Part shown: positions 31,035 to 41,919 of the stretch, piece by piece | Numbering within the stretch: position 1 is the first letter of the stretch | How the letters are laid out: each line of letters begins with the position of its first letter | Notes under the pieces: generated by a model | What the model was told of the DNA's origin: nothing | Seen by the model: only the letters and a program-made list of their open reading frames with translations | Database searches by the model: none | From: Fretibacterium fastidiosum | Lineage (GTDB): Bacteria; Synergistota; Synergistia; Synergistales; Aminobacteriaceae | NCBI RefSeq assembly: GCF_964642095.1 | Contig: NZ_OZ209244.1 | Coordinates: 1,765,106-1,829,105 of the forward strand | Direction of reading: 5' to 3' | Length of the DNA: 64,000 nt | Made by a program: the position numbers and the translations under genes

Positions 31035-31167
31035 GGAATCCTGGGGTTGCGGGTTCGAATCCCGCTCCGGTCGGGAGGCCGGATAGCTCAAAGGCAGAGC
31101 GCAGGGCTGAAGTTGCGGGTTCGAATCCCGCTCCGGCCGGGAGGCCGGGTAGCTCAATGGTAGAGTT
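31035..31167 (+). other. cluster of tRNA-derived remnants: 3' tRNA fragment (31035-31078), 66-nt tRNA-like unit lacking an anticodon arm (31079-31144), 5' tRNA fragment (31145-31167)
   Basis: T-arm GCGGGTTCGAATCCCGC is repeated twice with acceptor 3' halves TCCGGTC/TCCGGCC. 5' halves GGCCGGATAGCTCAAAGGCAGAGC and GGCCGGGTAGCTCAATGGTAGAG. No complete cloverleaf can be built. Confidence 0.6.
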
Positions 31168-31447
31168 GCGTAGAAACAAAACGACGAAGTCGGAACGATG
31201 GGATATGGCGCTTTGCCGGTTCGGTCGCAGTTTGGGCCGGACGCCCCTGAAACCGTCTCGAGGCGTCCGAGGCCCCGTCCCGGACCTGCTGTGGCCCAGG
31301 CCTCCCCGGTGGGGACGGCTCCGGCCCGGCGCGTCCCGGACGGAACGGAGCCCCACGGGGACAGAGGGGCGACGCCGTATTCCATCAATATTCAAGGACG
31401 CTGATTGACGAAAGGCGCGTCCCGGAATGAATTTTAAGGAGGAAAAA

Positions 31448-32554
31448 ATGAAGATCACAGTCGGCGAGAACGAGCGCGCGTTTCTCTTTCGCAACGGTCG
31501 CTTCGTGAGGATGCTGGGAACGGGCAAGCACCGACTGTTTCGCTTTCTGGGAGAGGAAGTCCGTCGGCTGGACGTGAACGACGAGCCCCTGAACGCCGAC
31601 ATCCCGCTGCCGGTCTACCTTCGTGACGAGAACTTCGCGCGGGAGGTAGAGACGGTGCGGGTCTCCGACGGGCACGTGGCCCTGCACTACGTGGACGGAC
31701 GCTTTGCGGGCGTGCTGGAGCCGGGGGAGCACACCTACTGGAAGGTGTTCAGGAGCCACGACTTCAAGCTGGTGGATACGGAGGACGATACCGCTACCCT
31801 GCCTCCGCTGGTCCAGGAGGCCATCCCGAACTCGCTCTGTGAGCGGGTGGAGGTCGATGCCCACGAGGTCGCCCTGCTGTACGTGGACGGACGCTTTGAG
31901 CGCCTGCTGGAGCCGGGACGGTACTTCTTCTGGAGAAACGGCAGGAACATCGACTGGACGCCCTGCGACCTGCGCATCCGCCAGGTGGACGTCGCGGGCC
32001 AGGAGATTCTGACCCTGGACAAGGTGGCCCTTCGTCTCAACTTCGTCTGCACGTACCGAGTCCTGGACCCGGTGCGCCTGTATCGGGAACAGGAGGACCC
32101 GGAGCGCCAGCTCTACGCGGCCCTTCAGTTGGCCCTGCGCGAGGTGGTGGGACACCTGCGGTTCGACGAGCTCCTGGAGCGCAGGAACGACCTGGGCTCC
32201 CTGGTCCTGGAGGCCCTGCCCCATGACGGAATCGTGGAGTTCGTCTCCGCGGGGCTTCGGGACATCGTCCTGCCAGGCGAGATCCGGGAGATCATGAACA
32301 CGGTGTTGGTCGCAGAGAAGAAGGCCCAGGCCAGCGTCATCACCCGACGCGAGGAGGTGGCCTCCACCCGCAGCCTGTTGAACACCGCAAAGCTCATGGA
32401 GGAGAACGCCACACTCTTCAAGCTGAAGGAGCTGGAGTACCTGGAACGCATCTGTGAGAAGGTAGGATCCATCTCGCTGGACAACGCCTCCGGGATCCTG
32501 GAGCAGTTGCGGACCATGACCGCCCTCAGCGGGACGAAGTCCGACGAAAGGTAA
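31448..32554 (+). CDS. SPFH/band-7 (stomatin-prohibitin-flotillin) domain protein with three N-terminal YxDGRF-type repeats
   Basis: ATG at 31448 after AAGGAGG. C-terminal part (QEILTLDKVALRLNFVCTYRVLDPVRLYREQEDPERQLYAALQLALREVVGHLRFDELLERR...) is an SPFH/PHB core. N-terminus carries three similar ~35-aa motifs (FLFRNGRFVRMLGTGKH / HYVDGRFAGVLEPGEHTYW / LYVDGRFERLLEPGRYFFW). Confidence 0.7.
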   Translation: MKITVGENERAFLFRNGRFVRMLGTGKHRLFRFLGEEVRRLDVNDEPLNADIPLPVYLRDENFAREVETVRVSDGHVALHYVDGRFAGVLEPGEHTYWKVFRSHDFKLVDTEDDTATLPPLVQEAIPNSLCERVEVDAHEVALLYVDGRFERLLEPGRYFFWRNGRNIDWTPCDLRIRQVDVAGQEILTLDKVALRLNFVCTYRVLDPVRLYREQEDPERQLYAALQLALREVVGHLRFDELLERRNDLGSLVLEALPHDGIVEFVSAGLRDIVLPGEIREIMNTVLVAEKKAQASVITRREEVASTRSLLNTAKLMEENATLFKLKELEYLERICEKVGSISLDNASGILEQLRTMTALSGTKSDER

Positions 32555-32612
32555 CTGGATTTTTAAGGTAACGCCAGGGATGGAGAGGGTGCCTCTCTCG
32601 TGGTATCTCTCC

Positions 32613-41740: not shown

Positions 41741-41755
41741 GTTCAATATTTCGTG

Positions 41756-41831
41756 GGCGGGATAGCTCAGATGGTAGAGCAACGGACTGAAAATCCGTGT
41801 GTCCCCAGTTCGATTCTGGGTCCCGCCACCA
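41756..41831 (+). tRNA. tRNA-Phe (anticodon GAA)
   Basis: GGCGGGATAGCTCAGATGGTAGAGC...ACTGAAAATCCGT...CCCAGTTCGATTCTGGGTCCCGCCACCA. 76 nt. Confidence 0.85.
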
Positions 41832-41844
41832 GGTCAGCGAAAAT

Positions 41845-41919
41845 GCGGAAGTAGCTCAGAGGTAGAGCACAACCTTGCCAAGGTTGGGGTCGCGGGTTCG
41901 AACCCCGTCTTCCGCTCCA
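41845..41919 (+). tRNA. tRNA-Gly (anticodon GCC)
   Basis: GCGGAAGTAGCTCAGAGGTAGAGC...CCTTGCCAAGG...GGGTTCGAACCCCGTCTTCCGCTCCA. 75 nt. Confidence 0.85.

Follow-up and report, generated by a model that had tools for sequence, protein, structure and literature searches.

Burroughs and Aravind reportedly proposed in 2016 that an SPFH/Band-7 protein and its tRNA-like RNA work together as scaffold and cofactor, by analogy with Ro60 and Y RNA. As far as their work is summarized in the preprint of Wang et al. (bioRxiv 10.1101/312249), RtcB is found in some bacteria beside a Band-7 protein and a predicted 'b7a-tRNA' (band 7-associated tRNA). YrlA (RF02553), which is the Y RNA that Ro60/Rsr binds in bacteria such as Salmonella and Mycobacterium (PMC4201824, bioRxiv 10.1101/312249), occasionally adjoins a Band-7 gene; neither observation had been experimentally validated, and the tRNA-like RNA of the RtcB/SPFH systems had received no experimental test as of this 2018 preprint (bioRxiv 10.1101/312249). 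The criterion used for YrlA places it within ~4 kb of an rsr (Ro60/TROVE) gene (PMC4201824). SPFH/slipin genes in the rtc locus or regulon are also known from the literature on Pseudomonas aeruginosa and Anabaena. Here, we analyzed a window of 64,000 nucleotides (nt) from Fretibacterium fastidiosum (NZ_OZ209244.1, positions 1,765,106 to 1,829,105), in which two tRNA-like RNA modules lie upstream of a slipin/SPFH gene and divergently from the gene of a WYL-domain regulator. A first-pass annotation had read the modules as tRNA scars at the edge of an accessory island that extended to a tRNA array. The segment is most probably a patchwork, composed of an RNA-repair-type module and of defense and mobile genes, rather than one integrative island.

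Two tandem permuted tRNA-like modules

The sequence at 31038-31174 consists of two tandem 66-nt units with a mutual identity of 90%, which end 274 nt upstream of the SPFH start. From 5′ to 3′, each contains a closing strand, a 5-nt variable region, a T arm, a closed hairpin replacing the acceptor stem, the dinucleotide UA, a D arm, and the second closing strand. Each unit is a circularly permuted tRNA that has neither an anticodon loop nor a free 3′ (CCA) end. Module 1 is built from the closing stem CCUG/CAGG, the T arm GCGGG-UUCGAAU-CCCGC, the acceptor hairpin UCCGGUC-GGGA-GGCCGGA, and the D arm GCUC-AAAGGCA-GAGC. The T arm, the acceptor hairpin, and the D arm are intact in module 2. An alternative closing stem for module 2 (GCGCA/UGCGU) was rejected; it overlaps the D stem of module 1. 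A cloverleaf that combines the unit 1 D arm with the unit 2 T arm was rejected as the conserved fold because relatives with a single module exist and the modules of one Firmicutes locus (L067) have non-complementary hairpins.

The Rfam YrlA model aligned with both units in its tRNA-like part only (model positions 23-85 and 26-82 of 114). The Rfam tRNA model gave a match of 54 bits at 31077-31139, because it reads across the junction of the two units, and ARAGORN called no tRNA at 31035-31167. Our own covariance model of the module, R1, recognized both units (63.9 bits, E 4e-16, and 51.8 bits). The tRNA-like sequence reported at 31035-31167 in the first-pass annotation is thus real and well above chance level (54 and 63.9 bits), but it makes up complete permuted modules and not a stack of 3′-end fragments. 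Searching these supposed fragments with Infernal and Rfam returned YrlA-like permuted modules.

R1 was built from 32 modules, which were chosen by a descriptor search and then re-aligned. An initial six-sequence alignment was discarded; the acceptor hairpin fell in inconsistent columns. We found 188 homologues of the WYL protein, and a survey with one genome per species yielded 80 loci with a homologue of the regulator, all in Firmicutes except the Fretibacterium one (protein identity 28-44%). The contigs or loci of relatives used for comparison carry L-numbers (L001, L002 ... L100). At the match cut-off of 50 bits, the module was present in 37 of the 80 loci. An upstream rtcB and SPFH pair on the opposite strand was found in 29/80 loci, and the spacer held the module in 26 of these 29; the usual site of the module in related genomes is between rtcB and the SPFH gene. 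WYL homologues divergent from an rtcB-spacer-Band_7 operon were also observed in L004 (a GenBank metagenome-assembled genome), L005/L006 (another such genome), and L008 (Hungatella), with sub-threshold YrlA matches in all of these spacers.

The alignment of the 32 modules revealed 91.5% paired cells, as compared with 66% in shuffles and 34-49% in slid controls, and none of 500 shuffles reached the observed covariation score. The closing stem, which played no part in sequence selection, displayed compensatory changes in all five of its pairs. When the 73 model hits were considered, double changes were found in 18/18 pairs. The acceptor hairpin varies from 3-4 bp (CCGU-GUAA-ACGG) up to 11 bp across the members. 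These hairpins are too short for two abutting tRNA genes, which are therefore excluded, and the anticodon arm is missing in every member. A compensatory change from G-C to A-U in the acceptor hairpin distinguishes the window from L090 within Fretibacterium. R1 matches of 35-39 bits at 41615-41876 fell on junctions of true tandem tRNAs and were excluded as false positives after an ARAGORN check, as was the match in L079, a genuine His-Phe-Met-Gln tRNA array.

Two modules occur also in L010, an uncultured Fretibacterium sp. (Synergistota) that is the best match for the locus (89% protein and 92% DNA identity), and in L090, while L002 (WYL protein 71% identical) has one module and the SPFH gene. 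Sequence comparison indicates that the tandem duplication arose within Fretibacterium and was kept in genomes differing by 7-14% in DNA. Firmicutes have tandem modules as well; L067 contains three and L085 two, every copy has a hairpin and a closing stem of its own, and judging from their sequences they arose independently.

A side observation on this RNA family was made in Hungatella. In L007 (position 4288) and L009, an element carrying a phage-type integrase and a Viral_Rep protein interrupts the module precisely at the end of its T arm (GGUUCGAAUCCCGUCU). It takes the place of the downstream RNA and the SPFH gene; the intact comparison locus, L008 4248-4317, is 99.98% identical up to the junction. 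The element has a tRNA-Gly-like 3′ end (GGTTCGAATCCCGTCTCGCGCT). The tRNA mimic seems to serve as a secondary attachment site for a tRNA-specific integrase.

The surrounding RNA, the regulator, and the rtcB question

Around the modules, a structured RNA of ~420 nt is predicted in the window. Its 5′ hairpin domain comprises GGAC/GUCC and GGCGGCGCCC..GAGC-ACU-GCUC..GGGCGUUCC, and Firmicutes loci have a counterpart 5′ of the module, a GGUGCC-stem-GGUAU hairpin whose stems covary. The 3′ domain is a GC-rich extended rod; ~60 nt separate its end from the SPFH start codon. Of its 75 predicted pairs, 13 show compensatory changes in five sequences, a count made on the same small alignment that yielded the structure. 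The whole 570-nt spacer is 79% identical to that of L002, as compared with 71% for the flanking WYL protein.

A conserved structured RNA of ~480 nt was observed in the rtcB-SPFH spacers of Lachnospiraceae (L068 7995-8500, L017, L019, L022, L028, L027, L014, and L023). For these eight spacers, RNAalifold gave 123 pairs with 28 compensatory ones, as compared with 11.8 ± 2.4 in shuffles and 4-13 when the partners were slid; here, too, counting and folding used one small alignment. In addition to the module, the prediction comprises the GGUGCC-stem-GGUAU hairpin, a hairpin that is anticodon-like, another that is a second T-arm-like one, and a long rod. Rfam 15 matched the module alone in the large-RNA spacers, below threshold.

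We tentatively suggest that the tRNA-like module could be the most recognizable domain of an uncatalogued large structured RNA, possibly the RNA subunit or damage sensor of an SPFH-scaffolded RNA-repair ribonucleoprotein. This RNA may comprise a 5′ hairpin, one to three modules, a 180-300-nt rod, and, in Firmicutes, two extra hairpins (one anticodon-like and one T-arm-like), and it may always stand directly upstream of slipin genes in WYL-regulated RtcB loci. If so, the tandem copies of the mimic would tune its valency for tRNA-binding enzymes, and the T-arm copy in the module would present an insertion site to tRNA-specific integrases, as in Hungatella.

An inverted repeat, AAAGTTC-N16-GAACTTT, lies between the WYL gene and the RNA and is a candidate operator. 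It overlaps a weak promoter (-10 box TATCCT at 30946-30951) and is kept in L001, L002, L003, L010, and L093; L090, which has no WYL gene, retains only the right arm. A sigma-70 scan of 30700-32700 revealed no strong promoter; therefore, the proposed promoter is weak or non-canonical. Scanning the sequence between the RNA and the SPFH gene revealed no terminator-like site.

The WYL open reading frame (ORF) spans 784 amino acids (aa), with the probable true start at M19 (30820), and is divergent from the RNA and the SPFH gene. Searching the PDB sequences with the protein gave no match. In Hungatella/Enterocloster (L008 6001-8383, L007, and L009), two neighboring genes (462 and 334 aa) make up the regulator and together correspond to the single ~780-aa protein of the window and of many Lachnospiraceae; about 100 of the homologues are half-length, with a query coverage of 50%. 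The homologues of the SPFH protein carry the name 'slipin family protein'. The N-terminal part of the SPFH gene, before Band_7, contains a 94-nt direct duplication with 72% identity (31649-31742, 31841-31934), which suggests a repeated N-terminal domain of ~64 aa. Identity to L001 is 97.7% in the glycerol-metabolism genes (DAO, Pyr_redox, DUF1667; 24282-27868), and 91.7% over the WYL gene and the beginning of the RNA (28027-31069). This drop suggests recombination or a faster divergence of the repair module relative to the core flank.

Taken together, the RNA-repair-type module would extend over 28520-32554, with the WYL regulator divergent from the ~420-nt RNA and the slipin/SPFH gene. It would correspond to the prediction of Burroughs and Aravind (2016), who reportedly regard an SPFH/Band-7 scaffold and a cognate tRNA-like RNA as cofactors with which RtcB repairs cleaved RNA. 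In the mechanism we propose, the WYL protein would sense damage and de-repress the operon via the palindrome, and the tRNA-shaped RNA would bind the SPFH scaffold, tRNA-recognizing enzymes, or both. The first-pass annotation had correctly recognized the WYL regulator, but the island boundary that it set there cuts through the WYL-RNA-SPFH unit.

The relatives differ in what follows the SPFH gene. L093 (SPFH 81% identical) has the WYL gene, one module, the SPFH gene, and then rtcB directly (Pfam RtcB 6.4e-26); therefore, the convergent Type III restriction-modification (R-M) genes of the window occupy the rtcB site of a relative. L090 (SPFH 87% identical) has glyS/glyQ after the SPFH gene, and L092 (93% DNA identity) has SPFH-res-mod as in the window. 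We propose that rtcB was lost from the locus, with the R-M genes in its place downstream of SPFH. The TROVE domain (rsr/Ro60) had no match in the scanned set of 10 large ORFs, which include those of at least 400 aa, and in the genes adjoining the RNA; in this set the window has no rsr gene near the RNA of the kind expected for YrlA.

Several points weigh against this assignment. No Rfam YrlA score reaches the gathering score of 69 (the two units of the window have 38.8 and 38.3 bits, the relatives 33.8-40.5 bits), because the Ro60-binding stem is unmatched. The closing stem of module 2 is degenerate, and R1 marks those pairs as non-standard. No rtcB or remnant of it was detected in the 64-kb window (tblastn with two RtcB queries, best E 0.21), so a repair role is unproven here and the module may be in decay. 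It is also conceivable that the RNA acts solely in cis, as a leader of the SPFH mRNA. The identity with b7a-tRNA depends on the secondary description in bioRxiv 10.1101/312249. The relatives used for synteny are mostly short metagenomic contigs, and L100 and L010 belong to one assembly, although their origin from one genome is not proven.

Variable genes and the tRNA operon

The window has ~64% GC, and nearly all genes lie on the plus strand. The features of the segment are listed in Table 1. The gene calls of the first-pass annotation held up throughout: the SPFH/band-7 gene, the Type III mod/res pair on the opposite strand, the three tandem Rpn paralogs, the orphan minus-strand ORF, and the closing tRNA-Val-Asp-Phe-Gly array were all recovered.

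Table 1. Features of the segment; positions count from the first nucleotide of the window
Feature	Position	Strand	Evidence
WYL/WCX-domain regulator	28520..30874	-	Pfam WCX 4.1e-5; PADLOC WYL 3.7e-13, residues 588-764
Inverted repeat AAAGTTC-N16-GAACTTT (candidate operator)	30902..30931	.	Between WYL gene and RNA; read from sequence
Predicted 5′ hairpin domain of RNA	30969..31019	+	RNAalifold, 5 Fretibacterium-type sequences
tRNA-like module 1	31038..31108	+	YrlA 38.8 bits; R1 63.9 bits; covariation over 32 and 73 sequences
tRNA-like module 2	31104..31174	+	Copy 66 nt downstream; YrlA 38.3 bits; R1 51.8 bits
Predicted GC-rich extended rod, 3′ domain of RNA or leader	31197..31386	+	RNAalifold, 5 sequences
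Slipin/SPFH (Band_7), 368 aa	31448..32554	+	Pfam Band_7 1.6e-29; ribosome-binding site AAGGAGG at 31436-31442
Type III restriction subunit (res)	32613..35333	-	Pfam ResIII 3.5e-19; PADLOC REase_III 6.5e-84
Type III DNA methyltransferase (mod)	35346..37070	-	Pfam N6_N4_Mtase 1.6e-33; PADLOC MTase_III 1.8e-182
Three tandem Rpn-family PD-(D/E)XK genes	37433-38554, 38597-39670, 39692-40750	+	Pfam PDDEXK_2; TIGR01784
Probable truncated ISNCY-family transposase (ORF170)	40927..41439	-	NCBIfam NF033594, E 2.2e-6, model positions 280-365 of 368
tRNA operon Val(TAC)-Asp(GTC)-Phe(GAA)-Gly(GCC)	41579..41919	+	ARAGORN, Rfam

We propose that a second part of the patchwork (32613-41439) brings together the Type III R-M genes, the three Rpn genes, and a truncated insertion sequence (IS) at a junction that is prone to rearrangement and immediately precedes the conserved tRNA operon. 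These are ordinary variable defense genes. The res gene is convergent with the SPFH gene, lies on the same strand as mod at a distance of 12 nt, and is present in L092 and absent from L090 and L093. The N-terminal domains of the Rpn proteins match TIGR01784 (1.6e-23 to 1.9e-25) and Pfam PDDEXK_2 (~4e-27). Outside the repeat indels, the paralogs are 96-97% identical, and their sequences indicate recent duplication. They differ almost only in the number of a 4-aa repeat, xAEG, with indels of 8 or 16 residues and a 12-nt period (TRF); relative to Rpn2, Rpn1 has four more units and Rpn3 two fewer. Variation in repeat number has been reported for the RpnL/RpnS toxin-antitoxin defense genes, in which the antitoxin is effective only with the same repeat number (PMC10400941). 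By analogy, the array may encode three toxin-antitoxin variants that do not cross-neutralize each other; Met273/274, ~25 residues before the repeats, is only suggestive of an internal RpnS start. Rpn homologues were found in none of the other loci fetched.

Downstream of the Rpn genes, ORF170 is probably the C-terminal part of an ISNCY transposase according to its NCBIfam match, the single source of this assignment; it had no Pfam match even at E 5, and tblastn of ORF170 against plasmids gave only two weak, unannotated matches. The first-pass annotation had reported neither integrase nor IS element. Regarding the former it was right, since Pfam, NCBIfam, and PADLOC scans revealed no integrase or recombinase family among the genes of the segment, but the transposase-like remnant had been overlooked. 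Between Rpn3 and this remnant, a near-perfect 18-bp inverted repeat with a 1-nt loop was observed at 40830-40866 (CGTTTTCTGCCGCACCTG C CAGGCGCGGCAGAAAACG). No T-run follows it, and a related 20-mer is found at 36900-36919; it may be a repetitive extragenic palindromic (REP)-like element or an IS end.

The composition of the segment does not set it apart. The codon usage of WYL, SPFH, res, mod, and Rpn1-3 gave z values of -0.35 to +0.43 relative to 40 core genes (|z| < 0.5 in each case), and the GC content of these genes was likewise indistinguishable from that of the core genes. The sole codon-usage outlier among the segment genes was ORF170 (z = -3.6, GC 54%), so that the compositional deviation expected of an island is confined to the IS remnant. 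A repeat search over 30800-42000 revealed no attachment (att)-type direct repeats flanking the segment, and the tRNA-like units share with the array tRNAs only a generic T-arm similarity (69-79% over 29 nt).

The tRNA operon has a near-consensus promoter (TTGACA ~41535 and TATACT ~41559; 41535-41564) conserved in four relatives; upstream of its -35 box, the sequence is unrelated in all four. L094, L096, and L100 have the tRNA array in common with the window, together with 8-12 kb of flagellar genes (93-98.6% identity); immediately upstream of this box, each of the three departs from the window and from the other two. In L100, the region contains recN, nadK, a pseudouridine synthase gene, ppx, and others, none of which occurs in the window. 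The loss of synteny 5′ of the tRNA operon therefore marks the junction as a rearrangement hot spot and not as a 3′-end integration site. Integrases that target tRNA genes normally leave islands at the 3′ end of the gene, whereas here it is the 5′ (upstream) side of the tRNA operon that holds the variable DNA. Gene content differs after the SPFH gene (L090 and L093 versus L092 and the window) and before the tRNA operon (L094, L096, and L100); no contig spans both flanks. Sequence comparison of the differing flanks points to rearrangement rather than clean insertion. An accessory character is plausible for the R-M, Rpn, and IS stretch, which varies among close relatives; the RNA and the SPFH gene belong with the WYL module.

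Alternative explanations and known systems

With the above results in hand, we weighed other explanations of the segment. It is very improbable that serial site-specific integrations left tRNA 3′-end scars at 31035-31167 and that the rest was carried in by an island that can no longer move. The R-M, Rpn, and IS content does vary, synteny does break at the tRNA array, the tRNA-like sequence is real, and tRNA-targeting elements can hit this RNA family (Hungatella L007/L009). However, the units hold D-arm and 5′-acceptor sequence and not just a 3′ end, they covary and keep the same position beside SPFH genes in two phyla, and the RNA is accompanied by the SPFH and WYL genes. The 3′ ends of the array tRNAs find no counterpart in the units, att repeats are absent, codon usage is core-like, and the variable DNA is on the 5′ side of the tRNA operon. 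What had been taken for scars is a conserved, covarying RNA gene, and the scar reading of the left boundary is in effect refuted. We also give hardly any credence to a functionless relic, in which the units would be decaying pseudo-tRNAs of a tandem array and their adjacency to SPFH coincidental. The 54-bit Rfam tRNA match across the unit junction, the 35-39 bits that true tandem-tRNA junctions score with R1 (L079 being a false positive of this kind), and the lack of a closing stem in module 2 would fit such a relic. Against it stand the conservation of the permuted order and of very short closed hairpins in 37 loci, the absence of an ARAGORN call and of the anticodon arm from all members, and compensatory changes in all four helices, including the G-C to A-U change in the acceptor hairpin between the window and L090. 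In addition, the three adjacent modules of L067 differ in hairpins and closing stems, which makes a two-module cloverleaf impossible.

We consider it rather unlikely that 30955-31447 functions only in cis, as a regulatory 5′ leader through which the SPFH mRNA could sense RNA damage, tRNA-binding factors, or translation status, and not as a separate stable RNA. The structure extends to ~60 nt before the SPFH start codon, it is always directly upstream of the SPFH gene, with or without a preceding rtcB, and no terminator-like site separates the two. However, YrlA and YrlB are also co-transcribed in the rsr-rtcBA operon and yet act as separate RNAs (bioRxiv 10.1101/312249). Modules resembling tRNA are natural substrates for RNase P and RNase Z, and RNase P cleaves the YrlA of M. 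smegmatis (bioRxiv 10.1101/312249). Leader and separate-RNA roles are also compatible. That the WYL, RNA, SPFH, R-M, and Rpn genes constitute one co-selected, functional anti-phage defense island appears improbable. The enrichment of rpn genes near defense genes (PMC10400941), the WYL domains typical of regulators of defense systems (PADLOC WYL), and the SPFH-res-mod adjacency kept in the 93% identical L092 would be in line with such an island. Nevertheless, all other relatives examined have the RNA-SPFH pair but no R-M or Rpn genes with it, the other fetched loci have no Rpn homologues, and there is no sign of co-regulation, with res and mod on the opposite strand.

The patchwork of an RNA-repair-type module and variable defense genes, which we prefer, would add a ligase-less and tandem-duplicated example from Synergistota to the RtcB/SPFH/tRNA-like RNA repair systems predicted in 2016. 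A WYL-family protein is the usual neighbor of these systems in Firmicutes. The RNA is predicted to be much larger and more structured than the tRNA mimic alone, and the mimic seems open to tRNA-specific integrative elements. Permuted tRNA-like RNAs can pass for integration scars or pseudo-tRNAs, given that the Rfam tRNA model itself gives 54 bits. The locus offers concrete constructs for asking what SPFH scaffolds do in RNA repair.

Compared with tRNA-targeted islands, the segment shares variable genes beside tRNA genes, tRNA-like repeats, and the Hungatella integrase element at the T arm of the same RNA family. It differs in having no integrase and no att duplication, and in its complete permuted modules, its core-like composition, and the position of the variable DNA upstream of the tRNA operon promoter. 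The Rpn genes resemble RpnL/RpnS (PMC5350276; PMC10400941) in the N-terminal PD-(D/E)XK nuclease, the tandem array, the C-terminal helix varying by 4-aa (12-nt) repeats, and the defense neighbors, but they match PDDEXK_2 (PF12784) and not the E. coli YhgA family PF04754. Like YrlA, the modules run from an anticodon-stem equivalent through a variable region and a T arm to a closed acceptor stem-loop and finally a D arm. They also have the conserved sequences of the T-loop (GGUUCGAAUCC) and the D-loop (AGCUCA..GG.AGAGC) that support a tRNA L-shape, and a location in or near rtcB operons. In contrast to YrlA, the Ro60-binding helix (model positions 1-22 and 86-114) is unmatched, the flanks in the window are predicted to fold as 5′ hairpins and a 3′ rod, and the partner gene is SPFH instead of Rsr. 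Relative to the b7a-tRNA system, the window is without rtcB and has a WYL protein as the adjacent regulator. Compared by description only, as far as the secondary summary goes, its RNA is permuted, with a closed acceptor and no anticodon arm, rather than 'strongly resembling an authentic tRNA', and its module is tandem-duplicated within the predicted ~420-nt structured RNA. The two are alike in the tRNA-like RNA directly beside a Band-7/slipin gene, in the presence of rtcB in the same operon in most relatives (29 genome loci; L093, L004, L005, and L008), and in the spread over distant phyla.

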